The notes under the pieces: model-generated
Seen by the model: only the letters and a program-made list of their open reading frames with translations
Told to the model about the DNA's origin: nothing
The model's database searches: none
Made by a program: the position numbers and the translations under genes
Assembly (NCBI GenBank): GCA_051313645.2
Contig: JBNRSN020000001.1
Span: 260,214,001 to 260,278,000, forward strand
Origin: Centroscyllium fabricii
Lineage: Eukaryota
Reading direction: 5' to 3'
DNA length: 64,000 bases
Part shown: piece by piece, positions 2,313-58,150 of the stretch
Position numbering within the stretch: position 1 is the stretch's first letter
How the letters are laid out: each line of letters opens with the position of its first letter

Positions 2313-3496
2313 AACATAAGAAATAGGAGCAGGAGTAGGCCAATCGGCCCCTCGAGCCCGCTCCGCCATTCAACAAGATCATGGCTGATCTGATCCTAAC
2401 CTCAATTCTACTTTCACTCTCCATCCCGCCCGAACCCATGTGATCTCCCGGGAGAGGCGAAAAACCAGATAAAAAGCCCAGTGGCCAATTTGGGAGAAAA
2501 AATCTGGGAAATTCCTCTCCGACCCATCTAGGTGATCGAACCTTGGCCAGGAGATCACATGGCCGATCTGAACCTAGCCTCACGTCCACTTACCTGCCCG
2601 CTCACCATAACCCCTAATTCCCTTTACTTCTAGGAAACTGTCTATCTCTGTTTTAAATTTATTCAATGTAGTGGCTTCCACAGCTCTCTGGGGCAGCAAA
2701 TTTCACAGCCCCACCACCCTCTGAGTGAAAAAGTTTCTCCTCACCTCAGTTTTGAAATGGCAGCCCCTTATTTTAAGATTATGCCCCCTAGTCCTAGTTT
2801 CACCCACCATTGGGAACATCCTCACCACATCCACCCGATCAAGCCCTTTCACAATCTTATATGTTTCAATAAGATCGCCTCTCATTCTTCTGAGCTCCAA
2901 TGAGTAGAGGCCCAATCTACTCAACCTCTTGTCATATGTCAGCCCCCTCATCCCCGGAATTAACCTAGTGAATCTTCGCTGTACTGCCTCGAGAGCAAAT
3001 ATGTCTTTTCTTAAATATGGACACCAGAACTGCACGCAGTACTCCAGGTGTGGTCTCACCAATACCCTGTACAACTGCAGCAAGACCTCCCTGTTTTTAT
3101 ACTCCATCCCCTTAGCAATAAAAGCCAACGTTCCACTGGCCTTCCTGATCACCTGCTGCACCTGCATACTAACTTTTTGTGTTTCCTGCACCAGGACCCC
3201 CAGATCCCTTTGCACTGAAGTACTTTCCAGTTTCTTTCATTAAGATAATAACTCACTCTATTATTTTTCCTGCCAAAGTGCATAACTTCACACTTTCCAG
3301 TATTATATTCCATCTGCCAAATCTCTGCCCACTCACTTAGCCTATCTATGTCCTTTTGCAGGTTTTAATGTCCTCCTCACTCATCACACTCCCTCCCATC
3401 TTTGTATCGTCCGCAAACTTTGATATGTTGCACTTGAGCCCTTCCTCCAAATCATTACTATAGATTGTAAAGAGTTGGGGTCCCAGCACCGACCCA
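2313..3496 (-). mobile_element. CR1 LINE 3' portion, 5'-truncated
   Basis: ORFs with KFADDTK and RPHLEYCVQFW...RRMRGDLIETYKI...RNFFTQRVV; 3' tail at ~2313-2400. Confidence 0.9.
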
Positions 3497-15187: not shown

Positions 15188-15380
15188 GCAGGGGTTATGT
15201 CACTAGATTGACAGGGCTTGAGCTGCCGCCCCGTGATTGGCGGGGCTGTGTGAGTTTGCGATTGGAAAAGCGGAGGTTTCGGGTACGTTGCGATTGGTCG
15301 GACCTGAGCGGACGCCGAGCTGTGATTGGCGCGGCTGGGGTACCGCCGCGCTGTGATTGGCGAGACTGCACTGCCGCTCT

Positions 15381-15890
15381 GTGATTGGCGGGGCTGTGTG
15401 AGTTTGTGATTGGAGAAGTGGAGGTTTCGGTTATGCTGTGATTGGCGGAGCTGCGCTGTCGCTCTGTGATTGGCGGGGCTGTGTGAGTTTGTGATTGGAG
15501 AAGTGGAGGTTTCGGTTATGCTGTGATTGGCGGAGCTGCACTGTCGCTCTGTGATTGGCGGGGCTGTGTGAGTTTGCGATTGGAGAAGCGGAGGTTTCGG
15601 CGATGCTGTGATTGGCGGAGCTGCACTGCCGCTCCGTGATTGGCGGGGCTGTGTGAGTTTGCGATTGGAGAAGCGGAGGTTTCGGCGATGCTGTGATTGG
15701 CGGAGCTGCACTGCCGCTCCGTGATTGGCGGGGCTGTGTGAGTTTGCGATTGGAGAAGCGGGAGGTTTCGTTGATGCTGTGATTGGCGGAGCTGCACTGC
15801 CGCTCCGTGATTGGCGGGGCTATGGTGAGTTTGCGATTGGATAAGCGGGAGGTTTCGGCTATGCTGTGATTGGCGGGACTGCGCCGCCGC
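15381..15890. repeat. 85-bp tandem repeat x ~6, three ATTGG per unit
   Basis: Unit starts at 15381, 15466, 15551, 15636, 15721 and 15807. Confidence 0.92.
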
Positions 15891-15999
15891 GGCGCTGTGA
15901 GTGGTCAGGCCTGAGCGGACGCTGAGCTGTAATTGGTGGGGCTGCGCTGCCGCTCTGTGATTGGCGGGATTGTGTGATTGGAGAAGCTGGAGGTTTTGG

Positions 16000-16338
16000 G
16001 GCAGGCGGTGCCATTGGCTGGGGCAGGCGGTGCCATTGGCTGGGGCTGCGCTGCCATTGGCTGGGGCTGCGCTGCCATTGGCTGGGGCTGCGCTGCCATT
16101 GGCTGGGGCTGCGCTGCCATTGGCTGGGGCTGCGCTGCCATTGGCTGGGGCTGCGCTGCCATTGGCTGGGGCTGCGCTGCCATTGGCTGGGGCTGCGCTG
16201 CCATTGGCTGGGGCTGCGCTGCCATTGGCTGGGGCTGCGCTGCCATTGGCTGGGGCTGCGCTGCCATTGGCTGGGGCTGCGCTGCCATTGGCTGGGGCTG
16301 CGCTGCCATTGGCTGGGGCTGCGCTGCCATTGGCTGGG
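16000..16338. repeat. 21-bp tandem repeat (GCCATTGGCTGGGGCTGCGCT) x 14 plus two 22-bp variants
   Basis: Directly visible; the ORF track shows MAAQPQP 14 times. Confidence 0.95.
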
Positions 16339-16483
16339 TCCGGTCGGCAGGGAGACGGGAAGCGGTTGTCAGGGGCCGATTGCGGGAAGGCCGAGGAGGA
16401 GCGGACTCCGGCTCGGAGTGTCATCCCGCGGGGGAAGGAAGGGCGGAGAGACCGAGGCTGGTGGTTTCACCGTCGAGTGAAAA

Positions 16484-16588
16484 ATGGGCTGCCTGTTCTC
16501 CCGAAAATCCAAGGGGAAAAACCGAGGCGTCAAGGCCGCGGCGGCCGAGGAGGAGCCCAAGCAATACAGCTGGGACAAGCGGGAGAAG
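16484..16588 (+). CDS. RP2: RP2 (XRP2, ARL3 GTPase-activating protein) coding exon 1
   Basis: Translates MGCLFSRKSKGKNRGVKAAAAEEEPKQYSWDKREK, matching the vertebrate RP2 N-terminus (Gly2/Cys3 acylation motif; PKQYSWD.REK). GTAAG donor at 16589, phase 0. Confidence 0.95.
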
Positions 16589-16870: not shown

Positions 16871-17110
16871 CTCCCTGCCCTGCCCTGCCCCAGTGTTGAG
16901 CAATCCGGCTCTTCTCCCTCGGGCTGATTTCTTCATCTTCAAATCTGCAGAGAGAGAAATGTGCAGGTTGCTGTGACTATTTTATGAAGCAGTTACCTCG
17001 TTTGATAACTCTCCTACGAAGCGACTTGGGACGGTTAATTACATCAAAGGCACTAAATAAATGTAGGTAGTTGTTGCCTGAAAGAAATGCTGTAACTGCC
17101 ATATATATAA

Positions 17111-17555
17111 TTGGAGAGGCTGAGTAGATTGGGCCTCTACTCATTGGAGTTCAGAACAATGAGAGACGATCTTATCGAAACATATAAGATTGTGAAGGGG
17201 CTTGATCGGGTGGATGCGGTGAGGATGTTTCCACTGATGGGTGAGACTAGAACTAGGGGGCATAATCTGAGAATAAGGGGCTGCCCTTTCAAAACTGAGA
17301 TGAGGAGAAACTTCTTCACTCAGAGGGTAGTAAATCTATGGAATTTACTACCTCAGAGCTGTGGAAGCTGCAACATTAAATACATTTAAAACGGAGATAG
17401 ACAGTTTCCTAACGGATAGGGGAATAAGGGGTTTCGGGGAGCGGGCAGGGAAGTGGACGTGAGTCTAAGTTCGGATCAGCCATGATCCTATTGAATGGCG
17501 GAGCAGGCCCGAGGGGCCGTATGACCGACTCCTTCTCCTACTTATGTTATGTTCA
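17111..17555 (+). mobile_element. CR1 LINE 3' end
   Basis: ERLSRLGLYSLEF...RNFFTQRVVNLW and CR1 tail. Confidence 0.9.
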
Positions 17556-17619
17556 TTTGTTTACCCTTATGCCATTCAGTAGAGTCAAAAGTGGGATATG
17601 CAGAGATTCAATGATTCGC

Positions 17620-17883
17620 AGTCCAACGGTTTTGTTTGGGGTCGCGGGCTTTCGGGGCGCTGCTCCTTCCTCGGGTGGGGGAGGGGTTCGTCCAAAGACA
17701 GCACATATACAAGCTTGTGTGTGTGCTGTCTTTGGATGGACTTCTCTTTCGCCTGGGGTGGGAGGGGGGGGAGCGGCGCTCTGAGGGCTTGTGATTTCGG
17801 GTGAAACTGTTGGACTATAACCTGGTGTTGTGTGACTTCTTGCATTTGTCCACCCCAGTCCAACACCGGCACCTCCACATCAT
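17620..17883. mobile_element. Penelope-derived palindrome with A>G hypermutation
   Basis: Hairpin 17620-17816 centred on AAGCTT (17711-17716), followed by the PLE terminal extension ...CCGGCACCTCCACATCAT. Confidence 0.85.
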
Positions 17884-17885
17884 GG

Positions 17886-18155
17886 CTTTCAAAACTAAGA
17901 TGAGAAGAAACTTCTTCACTCCGGGGGTAGTAAATCTGGAATTTGCAACCTCAGAGCTGTGGAAGCTGCAACGTTAAATAAGTTTAAAACGGAGATAGAC
18001 AATTTCCTAGCTGATAAGGGAATAAGGGGTTACAGGGAACGGGTAGGGAAGTGGACGTGAGCCTAAGTTCGGATCAGCCATGATCCTATTGAATGGCGGA
18101 GCAGGCCCGAGGGGCTGTATGGCCTACTCTTGCTCCTACTTCTTATGTTCTTATG
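17886..18155 (+). mobile_element. CR1 LINE 3' end
   Basis: Homologous to 17285-17550. Confidence 0.85.
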
Positions 18156-18307
18156 AAACAAACTGCAGAAAAAAAAATCCATTTTAATTTTGGGCAGGAG
18201 AATAATCGAAGTTGTACCTGCATTTAGTTTGTGGCAGTGTTTTAAATATTTGTATGGGCAAAAATGTTGGTGGCCCTTGTCCACCTGGGCAATCTGTTCC
18301 AGTCAAT

Positions 18308-21105: not shown

Positions 21106-21344
21106 TCTTATCCTGGTTCCTGCAACGAAGGCTAAGTTATTAATCTGCTTAATGTTAAACTAAAAGGCCTTTGGAGTGGGACTCTAATGGTTAAGTAATT
21201 AAATTAGTAGCTTGTTTTCAGTTAAATATATTACTTAAACACTTTGCTTACTTGCTCAAAAAATTTATGTTTTCCACTGCGAATCATTGAATCTCTGCAT
21301 AGCCCACTTTTGACTCTACTGAATGGCATAAGGGTAAACAAATG

Positions 21345-22220
21345 AACATAACATAAGTAGGAGAAGGAGTCGGCCATACGGCCCCTCGGGCCTGCTCCGC
21401 CATTCAATAGGATCATGGCTGATCCGAACTTAGACTCACGTCCACTTCCCTGCTCTCTCCCCATTACCCCTTATTCCCCTATCCGTTAGGAAACTGTCAA
21501 TCTCCGTTTTAAATTTATTTAATGTTGCAGCTTCCACAGCTCTCTGAGGTAGTAAATTCCATAGATTTACTACCCTCTGAGTGAAGAAGTTTCTCCTCAT
21601 CTCAGTTTTGAAAGGGCAGCCCCTTATTCTCAGATTATGCCCCCTAGTTCTAGTCTCACCCATCAGTGGAAACGTCCTCACCGCATCCACCCGATCAAGC
21701 CCCCTCGCAATCTTATATGTTTCGATAAGATCGCCTCTCATTCTTCTGAATTCCAATGAGTAGAGGCTCAACCTTTCCTCAAAAGTCAACCCCCTCATCT
21801 CCGGAATCAACCGAGTGAACTTTCTCTGAACTGCCTCGAGAGCAAGTATATCTTTTCTTAAATATGGAAACCAAAACTGTACGCAGTATTCCAGGTGTGA
21901 CCTCACCAATACCCTGTATAACTGCAGCAAGACTTCCCTGCTTTTACACTCCATCCCCCTTGCAATAAAAGCCACGATTCCATTGGCCTTCCTGATCACC
22001 TGCTGTAGTTGGATGCTAACCTTCTGTGTTTCATGCACCAGGACCCCCAGATCCCTTTGTACCCTAACACTTTGCAGTTTCTCTCCATTTAGATAATAAC
22101 TTGCTGTTTGATTTTTTTTCTGCCAAAGTGCATAACCTCACACTTTCCAACATATTCCATCTGCCAAATTTTTGCCCACTCAATTAGCCTGTCTGTCATT
22201 TTGCAGGTTTTTTATGTCCT
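21345..22220 (-). mobile_element. CR1 LINE 3' portion
   Basis: ORF 21436-22038 with CR1 ORF2 C-terminal motifs. Confidence 0.9.
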
Positions 22221-29524: not shown

Positions 29525-29927
29525 CGATAACAAAATACTGCAGATGCTGGAAATCCGAAATAACAACAGAAAATGCTGGAAAAACTCAGCAGTTCAGGCA
29601 ACATCCGTGAAGAGAGGAATAGGAGTCAACGTTTCGGGTCGGGACCCTTTATCAAGACTGAAATGAAACAGATGAGAAGGATAGAGGAGGGCTGGGAGAG
29701 AACAAAGGGACGAGAAGAGACAATGAGAGTTATTCAAAACGAGACAAGGTGGTAATAGGACAGAAGACAGCTCAAGATGTTCTCTCCCAGCCCTCTTCTG
29801 TCCTTCTCGTCTATTTCATTTCAGTCTTGATAAAGGGTCCCGACCAGAAACGTTGATTCCTATTTCTCTCTTCACGGATGTTGCCTGAACTGCCGAGTTT
29901 TTCCAGCATTTTCTGTTGTTATTTCAA
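29525..29927. mobile_element. Penelope-derived palindrome (family 2)
   Basis: Arms ~29556-29704 and ~29778-29925; degenerate hammerheads TTGATAAAGGGTCCCGACC(C/A)GAAACGTT. Confidence 0.8.
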
Positions 29928-43096: not shown

Positions 43097-43494
43097 CAAG
43101 TCCGGCACCATTAATCCGGAAACTTCAGTCGTCCGGCACGAATCCGGGCCTCTCCTCGACTGCCCTGCGCATGCGCAATATGGCCGCCGCGCTTGGCTGC
43201 ACATGCCCGGGGCCTCTCCCCAACTGGCCTGCGCATGTACTCTGAGGAGATCGATGGCAAAGAGGTATGATGGAATCTAAATCTACAGTGGGGGGGTGGG
43301 GGGGTGGGAATAATAAAGGGACATGCAAGATTCCTATTGAGTTAGTCCGAACGATTGATGCTTCGGCGAACGCATGTGCAGACCATTCAAAATGGCCGCC
43401 GGCATGTGCAGCGGCCATTTTGAATGGTCTGCGCATGCGCTCGCCGAAGCTTCAGTCGTTCGGATTTTTCACTCGTCCGGCGGTGTCGGACCTG
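43097..43494. mobile_element. TA-flanked MITE, same group as 39182
   Basis: Ends CAAGTCCGGCACC / GGTGTCGGACCTG, flanked by TA; internal GCGCATGCGC and AAAATGGCCGCC. Confidence 0.75.
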
Positions 43495-54900: not shown

Positions 54901-57535
54901 CCAGAGTGCTCTCCTACTAACACTTCTACCACTTGCCCGGCCACATTTCCTAGAACCAGGTCCAGTACCGCCCCCTCTTTTGTAGGACCCTCTACATACT
55001 GGCTCAAAAAGCTCTCCTGGATGCACTAAGAATTCTGCACGGTATTATGTAATGAGAAAGGGTTAATTAGCAATCTATGCGCGGCCCCTTGGGTTGGAGC
55101 GATCATAATATGATAGAACTCTTCATTAAGATGGAGAGTGAAGGAGTTGACTCAGAGACTAGGGTCCTGAATTTAAATAAAGGAAGCTACGATGGTATGA
55201 GGCATGAGTTGGGTAGGATTGATTGGGGAATGTTACTCAAAGGGTTGAAGGTGGATAGGCAATGGCAAACATTCAAAGATCACATGGTTGAACTACAGAA
55301 TCTGTTCATCCCTCTTTGGCTTAAAAATAAAACAAAAAAGGTGACTCAATCGTGGCTAACAAAGGAAATGAGCAAAAGCATAAGATCCAAGGAGAGGGCA
55401 TATAAATTGGCCAGAAAAAGCAGTAAACTTGAGGATTGGGAGCAGTTTAGGATTCAACAAAGGAGGACAAATGGATTAATTAAGAGGGGAGAAAATAGAG
55501 TATGAGAGTAAGCTTGCAGGGAACATAAAAACTGACTGTAAAAGCTTTTATAGATATGTGAAGAGAAAAAGATTGGTGAAGTCAAGCGTAGGCCCCTTGC
55601 AGTCAGAATCAGGGGAATTTATAATGGGGAACAAAGGAGAACACAAATAACCTCCCAGAGATGTCGGGGAGCAAAGGGTCTAATGAAACGGAGGAACTGA
55701 AAGAAATCAGTATTTGTAGCGAAATGGTGTTGGGGAAATTGACAGGATTGAAGGCCGTTAAATCCCCAGGGCCTGATAATCTACATCCTAGGGTACTTAA
55801 GGAAGTGGCCCTAGAAATAGTAGATGCATTACTGGTCATCTTCCAAAATTCGATAGACTCTGGAACAGTACCCATGGATTGGAGGGTAGCTAATGTTACC
55901 CCACTGTTCGAACAAGGTGGCAGAGAGAAACGGGGAAACGGGTAAGCCTGACATCGGTAGTGGGGAAAATGCTAGAGTCCATTATAAAAGATGTAATAGC
56001 CGAACACTTGGAAAGCAGTGACAGGATCGGACAAAGTCAACATGGATTTACAATGGGTAAATCGTGCGTGACTAATCTACTGGAATTTTTTGAGGATGTA
56101 ACTGGTAAAATAGATCAGGGAGAACCAGTGGATGTGGTGTATTTGGACTGTCAGAAGGCTTTCGATAAGGTCCTGCATAAGAGATTAGCGTGCAAAGTTG
56201 AAACACATGGGATTGGGTGTAAGGTATTGACTTGGATAGAGAACTGGTTGGCAGACAGAAAACAGAGTTGGAATAAACTGGTCTTTTTCCGAGTGGCAGG
56301 CAGTGACTAATGGGGTACTGCAGGGATCGGTCCTAGGACCCCAGCTATTCACAATATATATTAATGATCTAGACGAGGGAACTAGATGTAATATCTCCAA
56401 GTTTGAAGGCGACACAAAGCTGGGTGGGCGTGTGTGCTGTGAGGAGGATGCCGAGAAACTCCAGTATGATTTAAACAGGTTGGTTGATTGGGCAAAAGTA
56501 TGGCAGATGCAGTATAATGTGGATAAATGCGAGGTTATCCACTTTGGTGGCAAAAACAAGAAGGCAGATTATTATCTGAACGGCAATAGATTGGGAGAAG
56601 GGGTAGTGCAACGAGACCTGGGTGTCCTTGTGCACCAGTCGCTGAAGGTAAGCATGCAGGTGCAGCAGGCGGTTAAGAAGGCAAATGGTATACAGAATCA
56701 CACAAGATCGGAGCAGGAGTAGGCCATTCGGCCCTTCGAGCCTGCTCTGCCATTTTTGATGAGATCATGGCTGATCATCCAAACCCAGCACCCCCCTCCT
56801 ACCCTCTCCCCATATCCCCCGACACCCCCAACTCTAAGAACGATATCTCACACACATACTCATGGGCAATTTGTTTAGTATCTCTAATTCACCTAACCTG
56901 CATGTCTTTGGGTGTTGCCCTTTGTAGCAAGAGGGTTCGAGAACAGGAACAAGGATGTCTTGCTGCAGTTGTACAGGGCCTTGGTGAGACCACACCTTGA
57001 GTATTGTGTGCAGTTTTGGTCGCCTTATCTGAGGAAGGCTGTTCTTGCCATGGAGGAAGTGCAGCGAAGATTCACCAGACTGATACCTGGGATGGCAGGA
57101 ATGATGTATGAGGAGAGATTGGGTTGATTGGGCTTGTACTCGCTGGAGTTTAGAAGAATGAGAGGGGATCTCATTGAAACTTATAAAATTCAAACAGGAC
57201 TAGATGCAGGAAGGATGTTCCCGATTTTGGGGGAGTCCAGAACCAGGGGTCACAGTCTAAGAATACGGGGTAAGCCATTTAGAACAGAGATGAGGAGGAA
57301 TTTCTTCACCCAGAGAGTGGTGAACCTGTGGAATTCTCTAGCACAGAAGGCAGTTGAGGCCAATTCATTAAATATATTCAAGAAGGAGTTGGATATATTC
57401 CTTAAGGTGAAGGGATATGGAGAGAAGGCAGGGACAGGCTATTGAGTTTGGATGATCAGCCATGATCTCATTGAATGGCGGAGCAGGCTCAAGGGGCCGA
57501 ATGGCCGACTCCTGCTCCTATCCTCTATGTTTCTA
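51990..57535 (+). mobile_element. Long CR1 (endonuclease to tail) interrupted by an antisense CR1
   Basis: VIMGDFN at ~52040 resumes at ~55040 (SDHNMI); GGTATTA duplicated at the junctions. Confidence 0.85.
52197..55040 (-). mobile_element. CR1 LINE with nested SINE family 2 (53020-53470)
   Basis: ORFs 54573-55007, 53866-54456, 53432-53719 and 52267-53009. Confidence 0.88.
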
Positions 57536-57750
57536 AAGTATTTTAAAATTATAAATGAGTGGGGGGTGGGGGGGGGAAGTCTTATTCTGATAAAAGCCGG
57601 TCTTGCTTTTGCCAGGCGTAAGATCTTTTTAAAGCTTTTCAGTGGGCGGAGGTTGTGCAGAAAGCGGAACTCTCTGCCCACAGAGGCCCATCTCCAGGGC
57701 AGGCGCAGGATCTGTCGAGAGGATTCTTGACAGATTGGAAGTGCCGGTTT

Positions 57751-58150
57751 TAGAAACATAGAAACTAGGAGCAGGAGTCGGCCATTCGGCCCTTCGAGCC
57801 TGCTCCGCCATTCAATGAGATCATGGCTGATCATCCAAACCCAGTATCCTGCCCCTGCCCTCCCCCATATCCCTCGATTCCTATCGAGCCTGCACCGACA
57901 CACATCCCACTCTATCCCCGTAACCCCACATATTCAATCCCCCTAACACGAAGGGTCAATTTATCCTGGCCAATCAACCTAACCCGCACATCTTTGGACT
58001 GTGGGAGGAAACCGGAGCACCCGGAGGAAACCCACGCAGACACGGGGAGAATGTGCAAACTCCACACAGATAGTACCCGAGGCTGGATTTGAACCCGGGT
58101 CTCCAGTGCTGTGAGACAACAGTGCTAACCGCTGTGCCACCGTGCCGCCC
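57751..58150 (-). mobile_element. V-SINE
   Basis: Same family as 26453. Confidence 0.9.

Follow-up and report, generated by a model that had tools for sequence, protein, structure and literature searches.

A hyperedited Penelope-like hairpin in an RP2 intron of Centroscyllium fabricii as part of a retrocopied transcript that was probably reverse transcribed from a LINE tail

How can a palindrome that appears to have exchanged A for G on one strand, in both of its arms, come to lie in heritable DNA, and which unit was moved when it did? The question is raised by a stretch of 64,000 nucleotides on contig JBNRSN020000001.1 of Centroscyllium fabricii (assembly GCA_051313645.2), called here the window, in which a Penelope-like inverted repeat of this kind is found. 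A preliminary description of this DNA had taken the repeat as the fossil of an RNA hairpin hyperedited from A to I and written back into the germline, from which it concluded that such palindromes move as RNA hairpins and meet ADAR as a host defence. The features on which the following analysis is based are collected in Table 1.

Table 1. Positions in the window of the focal retrocopy, its parts, its surroundings and the donor of its patch.
Feature	Position	Strand	Basis or remarks
RP2/XRP2 first coding exon	16484..16588	+	translation matches XRP2 residues 1-34, E=1.3e-4; GT donor next
TSD-like duplication bounding the whole insertion, left half	16940..16951	+	junction sequences by eye; 11/12 nt, one indel
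Unique flank X, carried over from the source and forming the 5' part of the retrocopy	16955..17112	+	close genomic copies elsewhere are L107 and L108 only, 97%
LINE fragment of source type, 5'-truncated	17113..17197	+	diagnostic sites; open frame
Patch from a neighbouring inverted LINE	17198..17622	+	alignment, 413/423 identical (97.6%)
Left (antisense) arm of the Penelope-like inverted repeat	17620..17713	+	16 A>G
Right (sense) arm	17714..17849	+	14 A>G; G-run longer by 9 nt; hammerhead-like motif altered
Penelope tail, unpaired, 34 nt	17850..17883	+	unedited, 9/9 As kept
11-bp TSD, right half, from entry of the Penelope-like element into the LINE at the source	17886..17896	+	both halves in L107 and L108
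3' end of the LINE, carrying private variants and closing in 8-nt repeats; the retrocopy stops here	17886..18155	+	98.3% to L108; 2/83 A>G
TSD-like duplication, right half	18159..18169	+	junction sequences
Patch donor, neighbouring LINE copy with flank	21276..21780	-	alignment to 17198-17622

Pairing of the two arms with each other (17620-17713 against 17714-17816) gave 94 aligned pairs, 63 of them Watson-Crick, 30 G.T and one T.T, with no A.C pair at all, and the imbalance of 30 G.T to 0 A.C has a binomial p of 2e-9. The arms have therefore changed in a strand-specific and not in an arm-compensatory manner, the latter being the outcome that the preliminary description had set against its own reading. 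In this line, folding yielded -163.5 kcal/mol for the plus strand (z -13.2) and -87.9 for the minus strand (z -4.3), the near-perfect stem being formed by the plus strand only. Since a G.T pair may come from A>G as well as from C>T, the direction of change was taken from relatives, with L108 as the reference for polarisation, a natural unedited sibling that is the closest unedited relative of the focal copy and keeps the same apex. Relative to L108, 17 of 32 As in the left arm and 15 of 29 in the right arm have become G; one change per arm is private to L108, and after its removal the focal hairpin shows A>G at 30 of its 59 As, about half, in agreement with the roughly 30 strand-specific sites in both arms that had been proposed. 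The only other changes in the focal arms with respect to L108 are a C>T at 17782 (in a CpG) and the 9-nt expansion of a G-run near 17755-17771. In the LINE 3' part of the same copy just 2 of 83 As read G, against the 30 of 59 in the hairpin (Fisher p=3e-12). An extension at 17817-17883 had been regarded as unpaired and unedited, which is correct for 17850-17883 (9 of 9 As intact) but not for 17817-17849; this latter part was paired in the source RNA, as follows from the longer left arm that L107 retains, and its pairing partner was lost later.

Both motifs of the CUGANGA/GAAA type are altered in the focal sequence, so that the destruction of two hammerhead cores proposed earlier holds for the motifs, the name hammerhead being used here without confirmation from Rfam (a scan of the window gave 0 matches at the gathering score, hammerhead included). 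Unedited sister copies have a CTGAGGA...GAAA motif similar to minimal hammerheads, which have been described in Penelope-like elements (PMC4209133).

The editor itself is likely to have been an ADAR, judging from the A>G pattern, and a scarcity of edits after a 5' G had been put forward as its signature. No such avoidance is seen in the focal copy alone, where 7 of 14 As preceded by G are edited against 25 of 46 with another 5' base, and it takes the pooling of copies to bring it out. Among 64 arms from 42 loci, with the columns forced by the search removed, the edited fraction by 5' neighbour was 112/163 for T, 206/331 for A, 54/154 for C and 44/171 for G, and taken by column the mean was 0.31 after G (8 columns) against 0.66 after T or A (19 columns; p=6e-4). 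On the 3' side, where ADAR is expected to prefer G, the fractions were 90/161 for G, 106/189 for T, 162/299 for A and 58/170 for C, so that C alone is low and there is no gain for G. Inosine is copied as G on reverse transcription. Altogether, the core of the earlier proposal is maintained: a complete hairpin on one strand, hyperedited and with an ADAR-like 5' bias in the pooled copies, was written into heritable DNA.

The hairpin sits in intron 1 of RP2, and the retrocopy to which it belongs is in sense orientation to the gene. A TSD-like duplication of 11-12 nt (11/12 nt with one indel, read by eye) encloses 16952-18158. Loci with both flank X and the private LINE end are exactly three, namely the focal copy, L107 and L108, on three contigs; the private LINE-end motif occurs three times genome-wide, and over the whole of X the focal copy has two differences from both siblings. 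The RP2 locus as the source, or X as a spliced exon, were candidates that had to be rejected, since a 19-nt 5' extension is exclusive to L107 and L108. The layout of L107 comprises the flank, the LINE fragment, a complete palindrome with its TSD and the LINE end, hyperedited in a pattern unlike that of the focal copy. L108 is laid out in the same way, unedited and with the right arm missing, and shows around its LINE a 5-bp duplication, read by eye, which suggests that this locus is the original site. Moreover, neither the focal copy nor L107 extends beyond the tail repeats, whereas L108 continues into its own flank. The two edited copies have about 24 edited sites in common, and at 6-7 sites in each of them an A survives that is G in the other, so that neither descends from the other. 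Strong site preferences are also found in unrelated copies (from 0/22 up to 25/26 edited per column), and the common sites can consequently be a matter of substrate preference; they could also go back to an intermediate that was already edited, in which case the two rounds would not be fully independent. The LINE fragment of the window had no Pfam match. Ahead of the first RP2 exon, the promoter region contains at 15220-16340 a long minus-strand array in which CCAAT-box-like repeats stand in tandem.

Position 17620 had been read as the left end of the hairpin, which proved to be a mistake, as the alignment to 21276-21780 identifies it as a rearrangement junction; for the same reason, truncation of reverse transcription at this point was rejected. 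Diagnostic sites place the changeover from the source-type LINE to the local donor between 17157 and 17198. The patch that replaced the outer left arm of the focal hairpin derives from a LINE about 4 kb away, contains 64 bp of the unique flank of this donor (17556-17619) and ends exactly inside the hairpin arm with a 3-nt microhomology join at 17620-17622. Further long inverted repeats are present in the window at 29557-29925, 57424-57862 and 43346-43464.

The repeat itself fits Penelope-like elements in its inverted end, optional tail and TSD and, in longer copies, in a frame upstream that resembles GIY-YIG. The search of the genome with the focal sequence returned unedited relatives together with several other G-rich copies, and the copies of the family (L002-L053) have the inverted end, an optional tail of 34 nt and TSDs of about 10-13 bp; an optional tail of 30-40 bp has been described for these elements (PMC11167929, PMC3846280). 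In L081, L091 and L095 the GIY-YIG-like frame lies on the same strand, 584-718 nt upstream of the arm, with a Pfam score of 20.7 bits (E=5e-4) that is below the cut-off of 22.6, the shorter piece from L095 giving no match. At one position of the LINE (17886-17896 in the focal copy; L076-L105) the Penelope-like element has an insertion hot spot, with 253 exact junction matches that are apparently independent and show short microhomology at both ends. The palindrome-LINE junction was for this reason rejected as the mark of one family, 30 loci at the hot spot having varied apices, lengths and LINE variants. In L157/158 the palindrome is perfect, the A>G changes of one arm facing T>C changes in the opposite arm, which suggests that Penelope palindromes may normally be built after reverse transcription, a state that arm-to-arm conversion could produce as well. 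Six arm-compensatory changes at L158 1380-1600, all within the hammerhead-like core, may go back to a Penelope RNA that was edited and then copied at a stage when the second arm did not yet exist.

Dozens of other genomic loci have the same A>G pattern. With the own genome (7.2 Gb) as the scope of the family searches, an unedited 17-mer of the arm has 174,218 exact matches, which makes the element very abundant, and its four-edit version has 22, that is, about 1 in 8,000, where some 0.02 would be expected from the background A>G/T>C rate of 1.7% per site in family copies. A three-edit pattern of the sense arm has 25 matches. The reversed controls of both patterns had 0 genomic matches, as had a control 23-mer with four C>T changes, a rough control in being longer than the 17-mer. 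Pooled substitutions in the edited loci amount to 779 A>G against 54 in the next class, a difference that is not independent evidence since the loci were selected by A>G patterns.

The edited loci were also compared by their position relative to LINE and SINE tails. Seven of 47 rows were dropped (three duplicates, two arm-compensatory palindrome rows, one with 4 A>G and one sibling), and 26 of the remaining 40 edited loci have a same-strand tail no more than 1.5 kb downstream. Among the controls such a tail was present on 10 of 88 sides (p=1e-9), these being sides of unedited copies taken from the best BLAST hits and not a random sample. On the opposite strand the count is 3/40, and at the mirror position upstream 7/40. 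There is no tail within 1.5 kb at the other 14 loci, L147 having one at 3.4 kb. With respect to the Penelope tail, edits are in sense at 13 and antisense at 7 of the 40 loci, the rest being without a scored tail; this orientation is weak evidence, because Penelope-like elements may use antisense templates (PMC3846280). Flank searches recovered an unedited source-like locus for five of the seven edited loci tested (focal/L108, L063/L167, L034/L180, L159/L194 and L165/L196); for L074 they found an edited sibling only and no unedited source, and for L066 no close paralogue (best 79%). The retrocopies end exactly at the tail repeats, as the focal copy and L107 do relative to L108, L166 and L168 relative to L167, and L179 relative to L180, whereas at the source loci the sequence goes on into the local flank and the TSD is present with both halves.

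Besides the focal one, four families share the arrangement in which the hairpin is a passenger in a longer unit that ends at a tail. In the second family, L166 compared with its source L167 is edited at 30/47, 24/39 and 13/25 As in arm segments, 1/29 in the loop and 3/96 in the flank; in the third, L179 compared with L180 gives 12/40 and 19/28 in the arms, 0/12 in the loop, 0/9 in the tail and 16/504 in the flank. In the second family the right arm is interrupted by a SINE, at which the copies (L166 and L168) end, and their outer left arm is edited (30/47 and 27/47, respectively) though its partner lies beyond the SINE tail and is absent from the copy. The RNA was thus longer than the copy when edited, and pairing preceded copying. 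L193 has, compared with L194, two additional clusters of A>G, which lie 1 kb and 1.7 kb downstream and of which at least one is in a non-Penelope repeat. The LINE of L180 has an RVT_1 match (E=6e-17); by resemblance this LINE is putatively of the CR1 clade, and the tail-bearing repeats are presumably SINEs, again by resemblance. ARAGORN found no tRNA in three SINE-bearing loci, and the GC/CpG profile of 30 kb around L108 had no clear promoter.

Several loci deserve mention in their own right. The two clusters of L193 correspond to source positions 2300-2499 and 3100-3187, one of them in an inverted LINE/SINE tail, so that other repeats have also been fossilised in edited form. The most extended edited stretch seen is that of L060, with A>G over several hundred bases of a long Penelope-like arm (23/42 scored sites). 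The siblings L191 and L192 are edited in the left arm only and in different patterns, L192 beginning at an assembly gap, and no unedited parent was found for them. At L059, L067, L069 and L154 the edited arms adjoin sequence like that of LTR retrotransposons on the edited strand, and may be cargo of a different retroelement. Finally, the palindrome of L066 (at L174 1200-1500) is edited in both arms, its TSD is intact, its flanks are contiguous and no tail lies nearby, which makes it the best candidate for a different route.

Which process wrote the edits can be weighed from these data. That the pattern is an artefact of sequencing, assembly or RNA polishing is most improbable. Logan contigs from four public runs (two samples of one study, whose reads may include the assembled animal) were compared with 17540-17900, and they have 0 differences from the assembly over 17540-17649 (X1) and 17660-17726 (X1, X2 and X3); these exact matches run across edited sites in runs of both samples, and the Gs are therefore present in the reads and no product of polishing. 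Further run contigs carry the L107-type pattern. One contig (X1, X3) differs by two letters and four gaps in the G-run, the exact length of which is thus uncertain, and none of the listed contigs spans the whole hairpin, which is what an artefact has in its favour; set against it are also the siblings on other chromosomes with their own edit patterns and junctions, and the rarity of the pattern, which only 22 of some 174,000 motif copies show. Ordinary neutral decay, or selection for an RNA stem in the RP2 intron that tolerates G.U and not A.C, can point to the plus strand being still a near-perfect stem, in sense, within a gene. This is hardly credible as an explanation, since drift to G.T should arise equally by C>T and the count is one C>T to 30 A>G, the background rate leaves the 22 four-hit motifs far above the 0.02 expected, and the longer and rough four-C>T control is without a match.

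A change at the DNA level or in place has been given a small chance, whether by deamination of an RNA:DNA hybrid or a single-stranded DNA hairpin, by RNA-templated repair or by misincorporation of a reverse transcriptase across hairpins. ADARs do edit DNA in DNA:RNA hybrids in vitro (PMC12925331), and L066 is without a source locus; however, sources are unedited and the edits are confined to their copies, the LINE tail is in sense on the strand that bears the edits, the outer left arm of L166 and L168 is edited with its partner absent from the copy, and a hybrid would not limit edits to self-complementary arms. A very small chance was left to the movement of the palindrome as a hairpin RNA by the Penelope reverse transcriptase, with editing en route, which is what had been proposed at the outset. 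Both orientations of the edits are compatible with it, given the possible use of antisense templates (PMC3846280), and so is L066, where both arms are edited, the TSD is intact and the flanks are contiguous and have no close paralogue. On the other hand, this reading fails at the focal locus because more than the palindrome was moved: the insertion is not bounded by the palindrome ends, with a new TSD and unrelated flanks, unique flank X and LINE sequence on both sides being common to L107 and L108 and the unit ending at the LINE tail, and the units of the four other families are likewise larger. Moreover, the 30 copies at one LINE hot spot differ in apex and length, and the A>G changes of L157/158 are mirrored by T>C, as expected if the second arm is copied after reverse transcription. 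Hairpin mobilisation or in-place change may account for a minority of loci, with L066 as the example.

The explanation that we consider very probable is that the palindrome forms part of a 1.2-kb retrocopy, the origin of which is a transcript from elsewhere in the genome, probably from L108. This transcript formed a long hairpin, in all likelihood was hyperedited by ADAR, and was likely reverse transcribed by a LINE enzyme into intron 1 of RP2. The TSD and the structure of the siblings show that a Penelope-like element with its inverted end entered a LINE fragment at the source, and the hairpin in transcripts through this locus would then have measured about 124 bp. Of the As that were paired, about half would have been deaminated, on the transcribed strand only, a step whose pattern is direct and whose enzyme is deduced from it. 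LINE machinery, equally deduced from the structure of the copies, would next have copied at least two differently edited molecules to new sites (the focal locus and L107), starting from the LINE tail and fixing each inosine as G. The outer left arm of the focal copy was replaced by the patch from the LINE 4 kb away, as its alignment shows, during or after insertion, and the source would later have lost its right arm. The recognition of the tail by a stringent LINE enzyme is suggested by established knowledge of such enzymes. The same retrocopying route accounts for most of the edited copies examined.

A more general proposal, which we hold to be fairly probable, is that LINE reverse transcriptase routinely primes at LINE or SINE tails inside long, folded and hyperedited germline transcripts, even where the RNA extends past the tail, so that edits become inherited mutations and the genome constitutes a datable archive of at least 100 edited retrocopies together with their unedited parents. 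The case shows RNA edits made heritable in DNA, with an unedited parent and several differently edited daughters in coexistence. Each daughter is the record of one germline RNA molecule, and consequently the site preference of ADAR, the transcription of repeats in the germline and the choice of templates by LINEs become readable from an assembly. A practical consequence is that genomic A>G clusters can mimic or mask calls of RNA editing. On the other hand, the effect on the repeat family is small, with about 1 in 8,000 motif copies edited, and the notion of ADAR as a host defence is not borne out by this frequency or by the edited RNAs, which were nonetheless copied. A 2016 review stated that a role of editing in the evolution or suppression of Alu repeats was not yet determined (PMC4982230), and the parents and daughters described here allow a direct test of whether editing feeds back into repeat evolution. 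Searches of listings of openly available papers turned up no account of host transcripts hyperedited by ADAR and fixed, together with their parent loci, in the germline of a vertebrate; if true, the present case would be a route from RNA editing to genome sequence that was not found described there for a vertebrate germline.

Several known systems resemble parts of this case. ADAR-type A-to-G hyperediting fixed in avian retroviral proviruses (Hajjar & Linial 1995; Felder 1994) is summarised in PMC12925331, and clusters of the same type have been observed in BLV proviruses (PMC8025556). The likeness lies in the conversion of about 50% of As to G in an inverted repeat and its fixation by reverse transcription, but those are somatic or cell-culture proviruses made by a retroviral reverse transcriptase, whereas the present edits are in assembled germline DNA, derive from host read-through transcripts, were likely fixed by a LINE enzyme and leave unedited parent loci behind. 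The footprints of APOBEC known as DNA editing are similarly clustered, strand-biased and inherited changes of one type in retroelement copies, polarised on relatives (PMC4866542, PMC2873906), and differ in being G>A on cDNA, mainly in LTR elements, and not tied to self-pairing; the accessible text of PMC4866542 selects for G>A and makes no mention of ADAR, and that of PMC2873906 reports A>G as enriched in RNA traces, an enrichment that high-quality DNA traces did not show. In pre-mRNA, inverted pairs of Alu elements are likewise abundant short inverted repeats that form edited dsRNA in host transcripts (PMC4982230), an editing known at the RNA level, whereas here the edits became DNA. Penelope-like elements with an inverted pLTR have the same inverted end, 34-nt optional tail, TSDs of 10-13 bp and, in longer copies, GIY-YIG-like frame upstream (PMC3846280, PMC11167929, PMC4209133), but the present copy is a non-coding remnant that last moved as cargo of a LINE-tailed RNA. 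Finally, the copies end at LINE or SINE tail repeats and are 5'-truncated like those of stringent LINEs with a shared 3' tail (PMC3747384), from whose retroposition they differ in their cargo, which is host sequence from upstream and reaches 3.4 kb, and, in the second family, in an RNA that ran past the tail when it was edited.
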